Shown here: in pieces, positions 3,251 to 9,770 of the stretch | Layout: every line of letters starts with the position of its first letter | Position numbering within the stretch: the stretch's first letter is position 1 | NCBI GenBank assembly: GCA_001774495.1 | Contig: MFAE01000006.1 | Location: 69,356-133,355, forward strand | From: Candidatus Campbellbacteria bacterium RIFOXYC2_FULL_35_25 | GTDB taxonomy: Bacteria; Patescibacteriota; Minisyncoccia; Phycocordibacterales; UBA12079 | Direction of reading: 5' to 3' | Length of the DNA: 64,000 nucleotides | The notes under the pieces: generated by a model | Seen by the model: only the letters and a program-made list of their open reading frames with translations | Told to the model about the DNA's origin: nothing | Databases searched by the model: none | Position numbers and translations under genes: made by a program

Positions 3251-3649
3251 TCAATTTTGGGGAAGATGCCCTTGTTGTTGGAGAGCACTCACCACCTGCC
3301 TTGTGGCGCTACACAGAGGGAGACTCAGTGGGTCTTCGGCCAACATAGTACCTTTGGCGGAGTCGTCGGGACAAAAACCTTCCCCCTCGACCAGATAGAC
3401 GATGTCGCATACCTCTTGTGAAGAAAGAAGACTAGTCCCCCTTCGGAAACATTTGAAATACTCGAGACATGCAATATGCGAAGTTGGGCTACAAAACTTT
3501 CGGATAAGACATTGGATGTCAGTAGAATCACTTGCCTGTGGCATCCCGCTAGGCAATGTCCAAATCTTTCCTTCGCGGACCAACAGAAGCCGTCCACCCT
3601 GAATCACCGCTGCCTTGATAACCTCTTTTACTTCATTAATCTGCATCAA
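3251..3649 (-). CDS. Nudix-fold protein with degenerate Nudix box, lying in a GC-rich islet
   Basis: N-terminus AAVIQGGRLLLVREGKIWTLPSG is typical of the Nudix fold, but the REx2EE glutamates are missing. Local GC is visibly higher than the flanks. Confidence 0.4.
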   Translation of the reverse strand: MMQINEVKEVIKAAVIQGGRLLLVREGKIWTLPSGMPQASDSTDIQCLIRKFCSPTSHIACLEYFKCFRRGTSLLSSQEVCDIVYLVEGEGFCPDDSAKGTMLAEDPLSLPLCSATRQVVSALQQQGHLPQN

Positions 3650-3908: not shown

Positions 3909-4331
3909 TTAAACCCCAGTACTTCCAAAACCACCATCGCCTCTTTCTGTCTCACCCAAAGAATCAGCAACTTCAATTTCTGGACTCTCAATTTTTTGAA
4001 TTAACATTTGAGCAATTTTTTGACCCTTTTTAATTTCAAAAGTTTTTTCACTAAGATTTTTTAAAACAATCAATATTTCTCCTCGGTAACCAGAATCAAT
4101 AACTCCCGCCATCGTCTTAACCCCATTATTAAAAGCCACTCCACTTTTATCCCAAACTAAACCAACATAACCATCTGGGATTTCCATTTTAATTCCAGCC
4201 GAAATTCTTTTCATTTCTCCTGGTGTAATTGCTTCATCAACCGAAGAATATATATCAAAACCAGCATCGCCCGCTTTTGCATAATTAGGAACAACCGCGT
4301 CCTCTGATATTTTTTGTATTTTTATTTTCAT
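3909..4331 (-). CDS. dut: dUTP diphosphatase
   Basis: 140 aa with conserved dUTPase motifs (AGFDI, GVIDSGYRGE). Confidence 0.9.
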   Translation of the reverse strand: MKIKIQKISEDAVVPNYAKAGDAGFDIYSSVDEAITPGEMKRISAGIKMEIPDGYVGLVWDKSGVAFNNGVKTMAGVIDSGYRGEILIVLKNLSEKTFEIKKGQKIAQMLIQKIESPEIEVADSLGETERGDGGFGSTGV

Positions 4332-4470: not shown

Positions 4471-5373
4471 ATGGAGAACGTCGCTTACAAACCTTACGAA
4501 GGAAGGACACCTGATTATCAATACCAAAACACGATCAAGCTCATACTTGAACAAGGGGTGAGATCCAAGAGTCAACCTGGTACAGATACCTTAACGGTTC
4601 TGTGTCCGCCAGCAAGCCACTACCGTCTTGATAATGGCTTCCCAATGATTACAGAAAGGAGTGTAAAATCATTTTGGGGACAACCCATCGGAGAAATCTG
4701 TGCATTTGTAAATGGAGTGAGAACACTCAAGGGACTGGAAGAATTTGGCTGTAAGTTTTGGTCACTTTGGGGTACACCTGAAAAATGTGCGAAACGAGGA
4801 TTGGAAGCTGGTGACCTAGGTCCCGGCTCTTATGGAGCAGGATTCCATGATTTTCCTACTGCTGATGGAGGAACTTTTAATCAGTTCCAACATATCATTG
4901 AGCAAATCAAGGAGATTCCTCATTTGAAAACCCATTTCGTCAGCCCTTGGATACCTCAGTTCATCGGCCGAGGCAAAGGAAAACAACAAAAGGTTGTTGT
5001 TGCCCCGTGTCATGGCTGGCTTTATTTCAAGGTGTATGGTGACGAACTCACTACAGTAATGGTTCAGCGTTCGGCTGATTTTCCTGTCGGAGTTCCATCC
5101 AATATGATTCAATATGCTGCTTTAACAATGATGATGGCCCATGCCACCGGGTTAAAGCCTGTTGAATTTATTCACCAACCAATAGATGCTCACGTCTATG
5201 TGGATCAAATTCCGAGAATGAAGGAACTCATCAAGCGAGAACCAAGACCCTTTCCAACAGTAACCATGAATACCGATGTTGATGACTTTTTTGGTTTCAG
5301 GAAAAAACACTTTACACTGGGCGACGATTACAATCCTCACCCAGCAATGAAAGATATTCCAGTAGCAATTTGA
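4471..5373 (+). CDS. thyA: thymidylate synthase (ThyA type)
   Basis: Catalytic PCH (VAPCHGW), REPRP and a C-terminal DYNPHPAMKDIPVAI that aligns with the E. coli ThyA terminus. Asn is present in the FNIASY-equivalent region, indicating dUMP specificity. GC-rich relative to the flanks. Confidence 0.9.
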   Translation: MENVAYKPYEGRTPDYQYQNTIKLILEQGVRSKSQPGTDTLTVLCPPASHYRLDNGFPMITERSVKSFWGQPIGEICAFVNGVRTLKGLEEFGCKFWSLWGTPEKCAKRGLEAGDLGPGSYGAGFHDFPTADGGTFNQFQHIIEQIKEIPHLKTHFVSPWIPQFIGRGKGKQQKVVVAPCHGWLYFKVYGDELTTVMVQRSADFPVGVPSNMIQYAALTMMMAHATGLKPVEFIHQPIDAHVYVDQIPRMKELIKREPRPFPTVTMNTDVDDFFGFRKKHFTLGDDYNPHPAMKDIPVAI

Positions 5374-5390
5374 TAACGGAGGTAAGGGAC

Positions 5391-6332
5391 ATGACCACAC
5401 AAGTATCTATAATTGTGGCCATGTCCCTTAACGGGGTTATAGGTCACAAAAATCAAATCCCATGGTACATACCAGATGACTTAAAATACTTTGCAAAAAT
5501 TACTACAGGACACACTGTGATAATGGGTCGTAAAACTTACGAATCCATAATACAAAAACTTGGTCACCCTCTCAAAGGTAGATTGAGTATAGTCCTCACT
5601 AAGAAAATAAATTACGAGGTGGGGGAAGGATGTTTTGTTGTTGAGTCTTTTGAAGAAGCTTTGAAAATCTCCAGTGGTGAAGTATTTGTCATAGGTGGTG
5701 AGCAAATATATGAATTAGCATTACCGTATGCTGACAAAATATATTTAACCATTGTTGAAGGACATTTCGATGGAGATGTATTTTTCCCAAAAATCAATAA
5801 AAATGACTGGGAAGAGATATGTATAGGCAAAGGGAAGTATGATAATATAAAATACAGTTTTATGAAACTTAAAAGGAAAAAATTTATAGATATCAATCAT
5901 TCCAGAACACCAGAACAAACTGCCATCATGAAAAAAATAGAAGCTGATGGTGTGTGTCCGTTTTGCATGGAAAATTTCAAAAAGTATCACACTAAACCGA
6001 TCATTAAAGAAGGGGTTTGGTGGATGTTGACCGAAAACTTTGTTCCGTACAAAGGAACAAAATTACACTTACTTATCGTCTACAAACATCATGCGGTTAA
6101 ACTTGAGGAAATTGACCCAAAGGCTGGGACAGAACTTGTTGAACTCCTGTCATGGATTGAAAAAAAATACAATCTTGATGGAGGTTCTTTGTTCATGAGA
6201 TTTGGTGAAACCGATTTAACTGGTTCTAGTGTTAACCACATCCACCTACAAATCATCGTCGGAGAAGTCGGTAGATCAAAAGAATCTTCTCCTTTAAGAA
6301 TAAAACTTGGTTACAAAAAAGCAAAAGATTAA
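5391..6332 (+). CDS. folA: dihydrofolate reductase fused to a HIT-superfamily (GalT/Ap4A-phosphorylase-like, HxHxQ) domain
   Basis: N-terminal ~165 aa is DHFR (IVAMSLNGVIG...GRKTYESI...VIGGEQIY). C-terminal ~150 aa carries NHIHLQII and an upstream CPFC. GGAGGT RBS 7 nt upstream of the ATG at 5391. The track ORF starts slightly upstream at 5370. Confidence 0.8.
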   Translation: MTTQVSIIVAMSLNGVIGHKNQIPWYIPDDLKYFAKITTGHTVIMGRKTYESIIQKLGHPLKGRLSIVLTKKINYEVGEGCFVVESFEEALKISSGEVFVIGGEQIYELALPYADKIYLTIVEGHFDGDVFFPKINKNDWEEICIGKGKYDNIKYSFMKLKRKKFIDINHSRTPEQTAIMKKIEADGVCPFCMENFKKYHTKPIIKEGVWWMLTENFVPYKGTKLHLLIVYKHHAVKLEEIDPKAGTELVELLSWIEKKYNLDGGSLFMRFGETDLTGSSVNHIHLQIIVGEVGRSKESSPLRIKLGYKKAKD

Positions 6333-6335
6333 ACC

Positions 6336-6372
6336 CCTCCAAACCTTTCGGCCGGAGGGGTTTCTTTTTTTT
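6336..6372 (+). terminator. rho-independent terminator
   Basis: cccctccaaacctttcggccggaggggtttc followed by a T-run. Confidence 0.7.
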
Positions 6373-6381
6373 CGAAATAAA

Positions 6382-7242
6382 CTACATTATTATCTGAATG
6401 ATCTCAACATTACGGTCTTTAAGTACCTCCTCGCCATCTAACATAGCGTATCCATTGATAAAATAACACTTTTTAATACCACTCCTGCCTACCAACTTTG
6501 CGCAAGGAGGACAAGGGAAGTCTGAGACAAAAAGATACGTTCCTTCGAGACAAATCCCCCTCTTTGCTGCCTCGGCAATGAGTATTGCTTCAGCATGTTC
6601 AGCGGTAGAAAGTTCAATATTAACGCCTTTGTTAAAAACAGCTCTCGGGTCACCGAAAATATAGGGGTTTTGTTCTTCTGGAAGATGTTGATTGTGAGCA
6701 ACTAACAAGATCTCTTCTCCTCTTGTAATTACTCCGCCAACCTGTCGCCACCAGTCCCAACTTTTCTGGGATTCATTTAGTACAACACCCACAACTTCTT
6801 TCTCAAAATTCGTCAAAGATATTCGATCACACGAAAGCTTTTTTGCCGCTGTTGTGTTTACTTTATTCCACCTTAAAAAAATCTGGTGAAAAATGACATC
6901 CTTGCCGAGAAAATATTTTTGTGAAATAGACCTTGAGACATCCTCGTCAGGCATGATAATTTGATCTCCACAAGAAACCAAAAACTGGATAGAATTCAAA
7001 TTTAATACATGCACGCTGTCGAAAATATTCCATGATCTTACCGCATCCATCACCATTTCTGGTGATATAGCTCTCAGAGAATCCTTCCTTGAAACATAAT
7101 CTAAATCAGGAATTAAGTTAATCAAATCATCCCCAATTATGTACAAGGTTTTCGCGCCACATTCGCAAAACAAATTCAGATAACCCTTGTGGAGAGCTGG
7201 AATGTAGGAAACGAGTATCTTACTCATTAGACTTCTCCTCAA
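6382..7242 (-). CDS. CMP/dCMP-deaminase-domain protein with N-terminal uncharacterised domain
   Basis: C-terminal zinc-binding HAE...PCxxC (HAEAILIAEAA...CPPCAKLV). The N-terminal ~150 aa has no domain I recognise. 4-nt overlap with the upstream gene. Confidence 0.55.
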   Translation of the reverse strand: MRRSLMSKILVSYIPALHKGYLNLFCECGAKTLYIIGDDLINLIPDLDYVSRKDSLRAISPEMVMDAVRSWNIFDSVHVLNLNSIQFLVSCGDQIIMPDEDVSRSISQKYFLGKDVIFHQIFLRWNKVNTTAAKKLSCDRISLTNFEKEVVGVVLNESQKSWDWWRQVGGVITRGEEILLVAHNQHLPEEQNPYIFGDPRAVFNKGVNIELSTAEHAEAILIAEAAKRGICLEGTYLFVSDFPCPPCAKLVGRSGIKKCYFINGYAMLDGEEVLKDRNVEIIQIIM

Positions 7243-7811
7243 AGGTTGTGGATTTCTTCTTGAAGAAGTTTTTCCAGTTTAGGAGCTAAATTTTCTGCAA
7301 ATTTTTTAGCTCCATCTACAAATAGCCTCCTTACCTTAGCAGTGGTACTTGTCGTAGATTGTGCCTCCAGAACATGAATGTGCCCACAAAAACTGCGCAT
7401 CTTATCGACTTTTTCGTTACTGTGTTTGGTTGTTTTAGAAATGACGAGAATGTCTGGTTTAACAGTTTTTATAAGTTCCATTGGCCCATCTTCAAGATCT
7501 TTTAGCACGATGAAATCAACAGGCCTAACAAACGACAATATGGCCGATCTTTCATCTTCAGACACAATAGGTCTATCAGGACCTTTTCTCTTTTTAACCT
7601 TGGCATCGCTATCCAAGCCGACTATTAAAACATCTCCCAAATCTTTTGCTTTTTGAAGATACTGGGCGTGTCCAATGTGAAAAAGATCGAAGGTACCAGA
7701 TGTAAGAACTATCTTCTTGCCTTGTCTTTTCAAATCAGAAATTAATTGACCGACCGATTGAGCAACTACACTAGATGATAAATTGTTTGAGGAAAAACTA
7801 CATAAACGCAT
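7239..7811 (-). CDS. cytidylyltransferase-family nucleotidyltransferase (HldE/RfaE domain II-like)
   Basis: TSGTFDLFHIGHAQYL matches the (H/T)xGH nucleotidyltransferase motif of ADP-heptose synthase-like enzymes. Confidence 0.6.
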   Translation of the reverse strand: MRLCSFSSNNLSSSVVAQSVGQLISDLKRQGKKIVLTSGTFDLFHIGHAQYLQKAKDLGDVLIVGLDSDAKVKKRKGPDRPIVSEDERSAILSFVRPVDFIVLKDLEDGPMELIKTVKPDILVISKTTKHSNEKVDKMRSFCGHIHVLEAQSTTSTTAKVRRLFVDGAKKFAENLAPKLEKLLQEEIHNL

Positions 7812-7972: not shown

Positions 7973-8608
7973 TTAAATGACCTGCTTCAACTTAAGGATT
8001 TTTTTGATTTCCTTAAAAACCCTATCCGAACTTAATGTTCCGTCGATAACTTTTACTCGACGAGGTTCGTTTTTCGCAATCTGCAAAAACCCCTCTCTAA
8101 TCCTGTTGTGAAAAGTCATCTTTTTCTTTTCAAAACGCGATTCATCATCTCCCCGATCCCCGTTCTTCACTTGAACAAATGTTCAAGGAAGCCCAATTTC
8201 TGGGGGGACGTCAAGCAAGATGGTTAAATCGGGCTTGAAGTTACTGAAAGCAACAGTGTGGAAAAGGTGAACGATTTTTAAACCCACCCTACCAACGACT
8301 CCTTGGTAAACAGCGGAGGAATCAAAAAAACGATCACACACGACAATCTTCCCAGATTTCAATGCCGGCATAATTACCGTTTCAAGATGCTGAGCTCTGT
8401 CAGCCATGTACAACAACAATTCTGCCTTAGGAACAATTTCCTCATTTTTTGGATTCAACAGAATAGCTCTGATTTGTTGGCCAATGGTTCCTTCGCCAGG
8501 TTCCCTTGTAAGAAGATACTCGATATTCCGAGCATCAAACAATGCAGAAATTCTTCTTATCTGGGTTGTTTTTCCAGAACCTTCTCCACCTTCAAGTGAT
8601 AAAAACAC
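7973..8608 (-). CDS. tmk: thymidylate kinase interrupted by a single in-frame TGA (pseudogene, readthrough or sequencing error)
   Basis: GTG start with GGAGG RBS. The P-loop GGEGSGKTT and DRxxxS LID region lie in the 141-aa ORF. The TGA sits at 8183-8185. The downstream 65 aa is in the same frame and is the Tmk C-terminus (FHNRIREGFLQIA). Confidence 0.7.
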
Positions 8609-8699: not shown

Positions 8700-9248
8700 T
8701 TAATCTTTTTTAATTATATTATCGATTTGAGTATAAAATTCTTCTAAAGACCCATTGTTATCAACAACAAAATCTGCTTCATTTTTTAAACCTTTAATTT
8801 GGAGTTCTGTTTCTTTTTCGTGATCAATTTGGAATTGTTCAAATGTTTTTTGATTATCATCTGAATTTTCTCCTCTTCCAACAATTCTTTCGTAACGCTT
8901 TTTCATATTAGTATCTACATAAACTAGTTTGAAATAAGGAATTTCTTTGAGATACTTTATATCATCTATTCTTCGCACTCCATCTATCACAATAATATTC
9001 GCATCATTTTTTCTTACATCATCAGCCATAACTTTTGCCAAAAGATCTTCACCAAAAACACTCCTCAAAGAAGTAGAAAGTTTTTGCATATTATCTCTGC
9101 TTTGCTCAAAATATAATCGATCTAAAATATCACGAAGCATGGTTGAAAATCGAAGTGATGTGCCATCAAATTTTTCTACAATATATTTTGTCATTGCACC
9201 CTTTCCCCCTGCAATTTCTCCAGCTATTCCTAAAATAATTTTTTTCAT
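8700..9248 (-). CDS. deoxynucleoside monophosphate kinase, phage T4 gp1-like P-loop kinase
   Basis: GIAGEIAGGKG P-loop, IVIDGVRR and a C-terminal NNGSLEEFYTQI that resembles T4 dNMP kinase (DGSLEELFSKI). Confidence 0.5.
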   Translation of the reverse strand: MKKIILGIAGEIAGGKGAMTKYIVEKFDGTSLRFSTMLRDILDRLYFEQSRDNMQKLSTSLRSVFGEDLLAKVMADDVRKNDANIIVIDGVRRIDDIKYLKEIPYFKLVYVDTNMKKRYERIVGRGENSDDNQKTFEQFQIDHEKETELQIKGLKNEADFVVDNNGSLEEFYTQIDNIIKKD

Positions 9249-9272: not shown

Positions 9273-9770
9273 TTACATATCATCGTAAGTCTGTATCTCA
9301 TTATTTACAAGTTCATATTCGACTTTCGCTTCTTCAAAAAGATTCTTACTTTTATCCCCTGCGTGGTAATCCAGATTGCAAACAACTTTATTTATTCCAG
9401 CGTTTACTATCATTTTTGCACAAGTATAACAAGGCGTCATATGACAATATAAAGTAGCCCCTTCAAGGGCAATGCCAAATCTTGCTGCGGCGGTAAGAGC
9501 ATTTTGTTCCGCATGGGTAGTCCTTATGCAGTGTCGAGCTTCTGTTCCGTCCTCATTTTTAACTGTATGCATTTCGTGACCAACATCATCACAATGTACA
9601 ATTCCTGCTGGAGATCCAACGTATCCGGTTGATAAGATTCTCTTATTTTTTGCAATTAAACAACCAGATCTACCTCTGTCGCAAGTACCTCTAGTTCCAA
9701 TAACTTCAATAATATCCAAAAAGTATTGATCCCAAGACTGTCTTTTATGATTTATTTTTTCTTTTTTCAT
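9273..9770 (-). CDS. dCMP deaminase
   Basis: HAEQNAL...PCYTCAK zinc-binding motifs; 165 aa. Confidence 0.8.
   Translation of the reverse strand: MKKEKINHKRQSWDQYFLDIIEVIGTRGTCDRGRSGCLIAKNKRILSTGYVGSPAGIVHCDDVGHEMHTVKNEDGTEARHCIRTTHAEQNALTAAARFGIALEGATLYCHMTPCYTCAKMIVNAGINKVVCNLDYHAGDKSKNLFEEAKVEYELVNNEIQTYDDM

Follow-up and report, generated by a model that had tools for sequence, protein, structure and literature searches.

We analysed a 64,000-nucleotide stretch of contig MFAE01000006.1 from Candidatus Campbellbacteria bacterium RIFOXYC2_FULL_35_25 (positions 69,356 to 133,355 of the forward strand; hereafter the window), which carries a gene where a dihydrofolate reductase (DHFR) is continued by a domain of the HIT superfamily. 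This folA-hit fusion is a plus-strand open reading frame (ORF) of 313 codons at 5391-6332, with an ATG start and a TAA stop. It is co-transcribed with thyA (plus strand, 4471-5373), the first gene of the operon, which encodes thymidylate synthase. The TGA stop of thyA (5371-5373) is followed by an in-frame TAA, forming a tandem stop at 5371-5376. As proposed in an initial annotation made from the DNA letters, the fusion directly follows thyA and has its own Shine-Dalgarno motif, a GGAGGT at 5379-5384 that lies within the 17-nt spacer, 6 nt upstream of the fusion ATG. Downstream, a terminator-like hairpin with a T-run (plus strand, 6341-6373) is found between this operon and a convergent one. 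In the protein, the DHFR domain covers residues 1-162 (5391-5876) and the HIT-like domain residues 158-313 (5862-6329). The latter contains a CPFC motif at residues 189-192 (5955-5966), where C189 and C192 form a putative Zn-binding CxxC, and the triad H283-I-H285-L-Q287 (6237-6251, with H283 at 6237-6239 and Q287 at 6249-6251), embedded in the segment N-HIHLQ-II of residues 282-289.

Judged from its amino acids, the N-terminal domain is an intact, canonical DHFR, complete as the initial annotation had it. Pfam DHFR_1 (PF00186) matches residues 5-162 over profile positions 2-159 of 159 (E=1.5e-50, 171.4 bits against a cutoff of 25). When 33 fusions were aligned, the catalytic and cofactor residues proved invariant (W25, D30, F34, T49, R64 and G102-G103), and T120 was at least 90% conserved; these presumably correspond to E. 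coli W22, D27, F31, T46, R57, G95-G96 and T113. The full-length homologue search also returned further unusual DHFR fusions (P0090, P0092, P0099, P0101 and P0070), in which DHFR is combined with a 4HBT thioesterase, with an AAA_17/AAA_18 kinase-like domain, with a preceding HAD domain or with PF14103.

No stop codon or frameshift separates the two halves in the window: the complete DHFR passes without a linker into a HIT-fold domain of about 155 aa. The same protein sequence (P0021) recurs unchanged on 15 contigs, which come from independent assemblies and samples (ENA, JGI and Logan, groundwater projects included), and its genomic context does not differ between them. Its 90% cluster contains OGD67290.1/UniRef100_A0A1F5EIY1 from Candidatus Campbellbacteria RIFOXYC2_FULL_35_25, publicly named "hypothetical protein" or "dihydrofolate reductase". 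The fusion is also conserved in related genomes: a full-length search retrieved 33 clusters of 306-344 aa (at least 92% query coverage, 35-100% identity), and a deep profile search raised the number of distinct, non-identical database proteins with the DHFR-then-HIT order to 65. In the alignment of the 33 fusions, the junction varies in length from 0 to about 25 residues and holds no conserved Met. An AlphaFold 2 (AF2) model of the whole protein built on this alignment had a predicted local distance difference test score (pLDDT) of 94.7 and a predicted template-modelling score (pTM) of 0.79, with no low-confidence or disordered linker; the last DHFR strand (153-162) continues straight into the first HIT helix. 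The ORF is thus one that encodes a single compact two-domain polypeptide. That a sequencing or assembly error removed a stop or a frameshift, or that the HIT half is translated alone from M158, is scarcely credible. M158 (ATG at 5862) does align with the start of standalone homologues, the junction is A-rich, and relatives possess unfused folA and hit neighbours. However, the sequence does not vary between the independent projects, the fusion recurs in 65 diverged proteins with linkers of 0-25 aa and no conserved junction Met, and M158 lacks a preceding Shine-Dalgarno motif. An internal start at M158 together with a promoter-like site at 5824-5853 was likewise rejected: neither feature shows conservation, and the match to a promoter is no better than chance.

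The C-terminal domain is, at the level of both fold model and family, a HIT-superfamily domain. The initial annotation had placed it there, and comparisons with known structures support this. When the family profile was compared with the PDB, the best match was a Zn-containing HIT protein of Entamoeba (3oj7, E=1e-5), and further Hint/Fhit proteins came next. With the AF2 model of the domain (pLDDT 89.8), Foldseek gave 106 matches in the PDB at E<=1e-3, the top 50 of which are all HIT-superfamily structures, with Hint-type structures at probability 1.0 and a target template-modelling (TM) score of about 0.65. Searching with the HIT half retrieved only standalone proteins of 147-166 aa, which are co-linear with the domain and have their N-termini at the position of M158. 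H283 and H285 occur in every one of the 193 family members compared, C189, C192, W211, Y220, H234, R270 and G272 are 97-99% conserved, and a Ser or Thr ahead of the triad is 97-100% conserved. The family also has a specific, conserved N-terminal helix (H-A-R-T-x-E-Q...) and a basic C-terminal tail (K-L-G-Y-K-K).

Its closer placement within the superfamily came out differently from what had been proposed. The initial annotation had read HIHLQ and CPFC as marks of the GalT/Ap4A (diadenosine tetraphosphate) phosphorylase branch, whose members share HxHxQ with the window protein. Among the 193 members, 113 (58%) have His as the last residue of the triad, 79 (41%) have Gln and 1 has Asn, and His and Gln are divided alike whether the domain is fused or standalone. 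HxHxQ thus does not characterise the family, and assignment to the GalT/Ap4A-phosphorylase branch is unsupported. Neither does CPFC single out that branch, since a CxxC also occurs in Hint-type Zn-HIT proteins and here aligns with the CIFC of 3oj7. Among 21 family members scanned with Pfam, 16 matched HIT (E<=1, best 2e-5), 10 DcpS_C and 7 DUF4931_N, and none matched the GalT (PF01087/PF02744) or Apa-type (PF19327 and PF09830) models; no NCBIfam model matched the HIT half. The mycobacterial Ap4A phosphorylase Rv2613c (3ANO) was detectable only weakly, at E=0.06 in the profile comparison and at Foldseek rank 26 (E=4.8e-6, TM 0.42-0.46), and GalT was not among the Foldseek top 50.

We nevertheless considered that the domain might be a transferase or phosphorylase of the GalT/Ap4A type, passing a nucleoside monophosphate (NMP) to phosphate or a sugar phosphate and not to water. 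The window triad and the 41% of members with Gln would fit it, as would the weak matches to the GalT-like DUF4931_N, the "ATP adenylyltransferase" found among automated JGI names and a nucleotidyltransferase gene that is an invariant neighbour (see below). The family pattern of CxxC, a His and the first triad His moreover resembles the Zn site of E. coli GalT, whose ligands are Cys52, Cys55, His115 and His164. Against this stand the absence of matches to the GalT and Apa models, the prevalence of His at the third position (where a second paralogue, HIT2, described below, mostly has Asn), and the closest sequences and folds, which are Hint/Fhit hydrolases. The architecture also differs, GalT having two tandem HIT-like half-domains in a chain of about 350 aa where the family has a single domain of about 155 aa. 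Chemistry of this type is possible, but membership of the branch is unsupported, and we regard the proposal as a whole as distinctly unlikely.

The domain is best described as a previously undescribed, Hint-like HIT subfamily. With the Hint-type proteins (Entamoeba histolytica 3OJ7/3OMF/3OXK, E. coli HinT 3N1S and human HINT1) it shares the alpha+beta fold, the H-x-H nucleophile motif with its preceding G-x-S/T-V, and the N-terminal CxxC. It differs from them in being only about 20-24% identical, in its additional N-terminal helix and C-terminal tail, in the alternation of His and Gln at the third triad position, and in being tied genomically to thyA and fused to DHFR or ThyA. In Hint, an Asp binds the ribose. 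An invariant Asn of the family takes this position in the profile alignment, which hints, if weakly, at an altered sugar recognition.

At E<1e-30, a profile search over 1.84 billion representatives recovered 160 clusters, a number that rose to 590 at E<1e-10. According to a scan of GTDB species representatives, the family occurs in at least 144 species, nearly all labelled Patescibacteria/candidate phyla radiation (CPR) and including Paceibacteria/Parcubacteria, Kaiser-, Moran-, Adler-, Vogel-, Colwell- and Uhrbacteria as well as WWE3. A scan of viral contigs found no member of the HIT family and therefore no phage-borne module. To examine gene order we assembled 87 loci anchored on the HIT gene, 85 of which were evaluable, the other 2 being cut by a contig end. 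The thyA gene lay upstream in 85/85: 70 loci had thyA followed by hit, 2 had thyA followed by two hit genes with the best-scoring copy second, 8 had thyA, folA and hit as separate genes, and 5 had thyA followed by the folA-hit fusion (the window would make 6). Against ascertainment bias, we retrieved 80 further metagenome loci through ThyA alone. Linkage was found in 66 of the 74 that could be evaluated, in the arrangements thyA-hit (28), thyA-hit-hit2 (19), thyA-folA-hit (17) and thyA followed by fused folA-hit (2); of the remaining 8, 4 end inside folA, 1 has hit 1.9 kb downstream, and 3 are short contigs without hit. Most of these exceptions are thus limited by contig ends, and we put the linkage at about 94% of the loci retrieved through ThyA. 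The HIT domain thus belongs to a Patescibacteria-restricted subfamily that is almost always encoded directly after thyA. The tightest association of HIT is with ThyA and not with DHFR.

HIT2 in these loci denotes a second, divergent HIT paralogue of 156-330 aa, with a CxxC and mostly HxHxN; some copies carry two HIT repeats per chain. Examples are found at L001 2421-2999, L002 6529-7122 and L041 5231-6220 and in about 30 other loci; the window has none. It directly follows the first HIT gene in 30/87 HIT-anchored and 19/74 ThyA-anchored loci. Where folA separates thyA and hit, HIT2 is nearly absent (1/13, or 1/14 with the window, versus 29/70; Fisher p=0.015 with the window counted).

Further gene fusions point in the same direction as the gene order. 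In P0190 (464 aa) the HIT domain is N-terminal to thymidylate synthase, and this HIT-ThyA architecture recurs in 4 clusters with 58-100% identity on independent contigs. The proteins concerned (P0190 and P0287-P0289; loci L096, L099 and L100) measure 462-476 aa, have a linker of about 25-30 aa and are annotated only as thymidylate synthase. In another lineage, only 3 nt separate a DHFR-ThyA fusion, P0370 (L097 5001-6536), from a downstream gene for a 147-aa HIT-family protein (E=2e-39, with CPFC and HLHCQ). Bacterial DHFR-ThyA fusions (P0370, P0373 and P0404; 466-511 aa) are found in close relatives of the ThyA clade of the window. Since HIT-ThyA, DHFR-HIT and DHFR-ThyA fusions were all found, all three pairings occur in nature. 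Together they argue strongly, in the manner of a Rosetta stone, for a HIT protein that acts along with the thymidylate cycle. The link to this cycle suggested in the initial annotation is in this way strongly backed, by synteny and by the additional fusions.

There are precedents for each side of this architecture. NitFhit of C. elegans (PDB 1EMS, itself among our PDB matches) is a natural fusion of a HIT protein with an unrelated metabolic enzyme, a "Rosetta stone" whose partners are elsewhere, as here, separate but functionally linked genes. In the present case the partner is DHFR (or ThyA) and not nitrilase, HIT is C-terminal to DHFR, and the fusion is bacterial and CPR-restricted. The DHFR-TS (thymidylate synthase) proteins of protozoa and plants, like the DHFR-ThyA proteins of Patescibacteria, have in common with the window protein an N-terminal DHFR, a variable junction, a dimeric partner from the thymidylate cycle and the setting of a thyA operon; in the window, however, this partner is a HIT enzyme and the synthase stays a separate upstream gene.

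How the DHFR-HIT fusion may have formed is suggested by the unfused thyA-folA-hit loci, in which folA and hit abut or overlap. In L025, for example, the 3' end of folA reads AGG AAA AAA TAA, and hit begins before this stop, its ATG being 17 nt upstream and in a different frame; a small indel would join the two genes. We propose that the fusion arose by such an indel, or by loss of the stop, in a translationally coupled, overlapping folA-hit pair, probably more than once. In a nearest-neighbour test on the HIT domain, 48/65 fused proteins had a fused nearest neighbour against a 34% background, and several were clearly nearer to standalone proteins. Fused forms are thus clustered yet not monophyletic, a pattern from which it follows that the fused state is inherited but was repeatedly gained or lost. 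A neighbour-joining tree of the 155-column HIT domain, with 35 switches between fused and standalone forms, was judged over-resolved, and the nearest-neighbour test was used in its place.

Such ease of fusion also bears on whether the association has any meaning. The HIT protein could be a generic Hint-like phosphoramidase or dinucleoside polyphosphate (NpnN) hydrolase that happens to share the thyA operon, its fusion to DHFR being neutral and devoid of functional significance. Its nearest relatives are indeed generic Hint-type proteins, overlapping genes fuse trivially, streamlined CPR genomes pack unrelated genes tightly, and no more than 2/74 and 5/85 loci have the fused form. Yet adjacency to thyA is kept across very divergent Patescibacterial classes while DHFR and other genes shuffle, independent fusions to two enzymes of the thymidylate cycle would be unlikely for an unrelated housekeeping gene, and the family has an N-terminal helix and a C-terminal tail of its own that Hint proteins do not have. 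A fortuitous association is therefore, in our view, rather unlikely.

The ThyA proteins encoded at these loci are themselves unusual. The window protein is clearly a thymidylate synthase (Pfam Thymidylat_synt, E=3e-58; TIGR03284, 156 bits versus a cutoff of 108). In all 86 orthologues that precede HIT in L001-L087, an (R/K)-T-H-F motif is found where canonical synthases have R-R-I-I, the R-R of which we take to be E. coli R126'/R127'. The remaining catalytic residues do not vary among the 86 orthologues, and the R21 equivalent is R or H. By these residues, the HIT-linked ThyA is a distinct "(R/K)-T-H" subfamily with a predicted modification of the site for the phosphate of deoxyuridine monophosphate (dUMP). 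This variant might co-vary with the HIT partner.

Taking these observations together, we propose the following mechanism. The DHFR domain would regenerate tetrahydrofolate from the dihydrofolate released by the ThyA encoded 17 nt upstream. In the HIT domain, C189 and C192 together with two histidines (H234 or H226, and H283) would hold a structural Zn, as the residue pattern suggests. H285 is the candidate nucleophile: it would attack a nucleoside-5'-phosphoryl substrate and become covalently linked to the (d)NMP, the nucleotide then being released to water, phosphate or another acceptor. As it is found standalone after thyA, behind DHFR, before ThyA and after DHFR-ThyA, the HIT protein may be a third member of the thymidylate-synthesis unit, in physical association with the others. 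The most plausible option is that it makes or processes the deoxypyrimidine mononucleotide used by ThyA, for instance through the liberation of dUMP or dCMP from an activated precursor.

The same data could be accommodated if HIT were mainly an adaptor, that is, a dimeric scaffold docking on the ThyA dimer and tethering DHFR for channelling as in DHFR-TS, with catalysis secondary or lost. HIT proteins and ThyA are obligate dimers, HIT is fused to DHFR or to ThyA depending on the lineage, DHFR-ThyA fusions exist in the same clade, and the modelled junction is compact and rigid. However, at an overall identity of 35-60%, the nucleophilic His, the first triad His, the CxxC, R270 and the pre-triad Ser/Thr are 97-100% conserved, as would be expected of an active enzyme, and most genomes have a DHFR that is not joined to HIT and whose gene is not beside hit. 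We thus think a mainly structural role fairly improbable.

The reading that we prefer combines one DHFR and HIT polypeptide, a HIT domain acting as a nucleotidyl enzyme within a ThyA/DHFR unit, and an origin of the fusion from a folA-hit pair. Several points weigh against it. In most genomes DHFR does not lie beside the HIT gene, and the DHFR-HIT fusion itself may reflect co-expression rather than a direct coupling of activities. The Pfam HIT (PF01230) match is marginal: against a threshold of 21.5 bits, the isolated domain scores 21.7 bits and the complete protein 19.9 bits. The pTM of 0.79 suggests, without proving, a defined arrangement of the two domains. Moreover, dUMP and dCMP can be obtained by standard routes through enzymes of the same gene island, namely dUTPase and, in relatives, MazG or DCD. 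A dUTPase-like or dUMP-supplying role for HIT could therefore be superfluous. This makes us less confident of any specific substrate, and naming a particular one would be a guess. Taken as a whole, we consider our preferred reading to have slightly better than an even chance of being correct.

We found no description of a DHFR-HIT fusion, or of a link between HIT proteins and thymidylate synthase, in a literature search, in agreement with the remark in the initial annotation that no described DHFR-HIT fusion was known to its author. The one Patescibacteria paper found to mention thyA does so only with regard to horizontal gene transfer. In public records the proteins are called "dihydrofolate reductase", "thymidylate synthase" or "hypothetical protein", or carry the automated names "ATP adenylyltransferase" and "Ap4A HIT hydrolase". 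What is new is the HIT subfamily and its domain architectures. Few pathways have been studied as thoroughly as thymidylate synthesis (ThyA, DHFR and SHMT), which is also a major drug target, and we know of no HIT-family component in it. Here, a dedicated HIT enzyme is tied to thyA across a bacterial radiation, by gene order in about 90-100% of loci and, depending on the lineage, by fusion to DHFR or ThyA; such linkage with fusions is a classic Rosetta-stone sign of a missing partner in the thymidylate pathway. The identity of its substrate would reveal how deoxypyrimidine pools are managed in the ultra-small, salvage-dependent Patescibacteria, would give a function to hundreds of proteins now called "hypothetical" or misnamed "dihydrofolate reductase", and would provide the HIT superfamily, many members of which still lack one, with a physiological role. 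Annotation of these fusions as plain DHFR or thymidylate synthase is incomplete.

The fusion lies within a larger island of nucleotide-metabolism genes. On the minus strand and divergent from thyA, a dUTPase gene (dut, 3909-4331; Pfam dUTPase, E=4.5e-34) forms part of a conserved dTMP island and is adjacent in about half of the related loci. Between a HAD hydrolase gene and dut lies a 132-aa ORF (3251-3649, minus strand) with no Pfam match; relatives have MazG or NUDIX at comparable positions. On the other side, convergent with the fusion, two minus-strand genes are coupled by an ATGA overlap: one (6382-7242) encodes a long dCMP-deaminase-family protein (281-286 aa) made of an N-domain of about 150 aa and a CDA-fold C-domain, and the other (7239-7811) encodes a TagD/RfaE-II/ECT-like nucleotidyltransferase with the motif GTFDLFHIGH, which scores under the NCBIfam equivalog cutoffs. 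This convergent pair is found beyond hit in nearly all HIT-anchored loci. The deaminase N-domain had no relative in Pfam, and its profile had no solved relative in the PDB; it shows the invariant motif Y-x-P-x-x-H-x-G-Y, together with P-D-E-D and F-L-R-W.

Two known types of system were considered for this gene set and rejected. A riboflavin/FAD cluster (deaminase, DHFR-like reductase and RibL-like nucleotidyltransferase) does not fit, the deaminase matching dCMP deaminases and the reductase being a canonical DHFR. An anti-phage dCTP-deaminase system gave only a partial match, far below threshold, in a housekeeping context. We also envisaged that the island encodes a non-canonical nucleotidyl-transfer route, in which a deoxypyrimidine would be deaminated and methylated on a phosphate-linked carrier and then freed by HIT in a ThyA-DHFR-HIT complex. 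Its parts would be the "(R/K)-T-H" ThyA with its altered dUMP-phosphate site, one or two HIT proteins, the TagD/RfaE-like nucleotidyltransferase and the deaminase with its N-domain. The nucleotidyltransferase would make the carrier form (dNDP-X), HIT, as an obligate subunit, would cleave it by hydrolysis or phosphorolysis, and dTDP could possibly result directly. We regard this route as very improbable.

Upstream of the nucleotidyltransferase gene on the minus strand, a thymidylate kinase gene (tmk, 7973-8608) is interrupted by an in-frame TGA (8183-8185) into a 141-aa N-terminal and a 65-aa C-terminal part, both matching Pfam Thymidylate_kin. The 141-aa product is also called in independent assemblies, and the TGA is therefore not a read error; possible explanations are a pseudogene, a gene split in two and a site of read-through. 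Recoding of TGA (code 4 or 25) was considered and is unlikely genome-wide, ORFs of 1233 and 1506 aa being intact under table 11. Just beyond tmk, and also on the minus strand, a P-loop kinase-like protein (AAA_17/AAA_18; 8700-9248) and a second, short CDA-family deaminase of 165 aa (9273-9770) extend the nucleotide-metabolism island to the L11/NusG genes.

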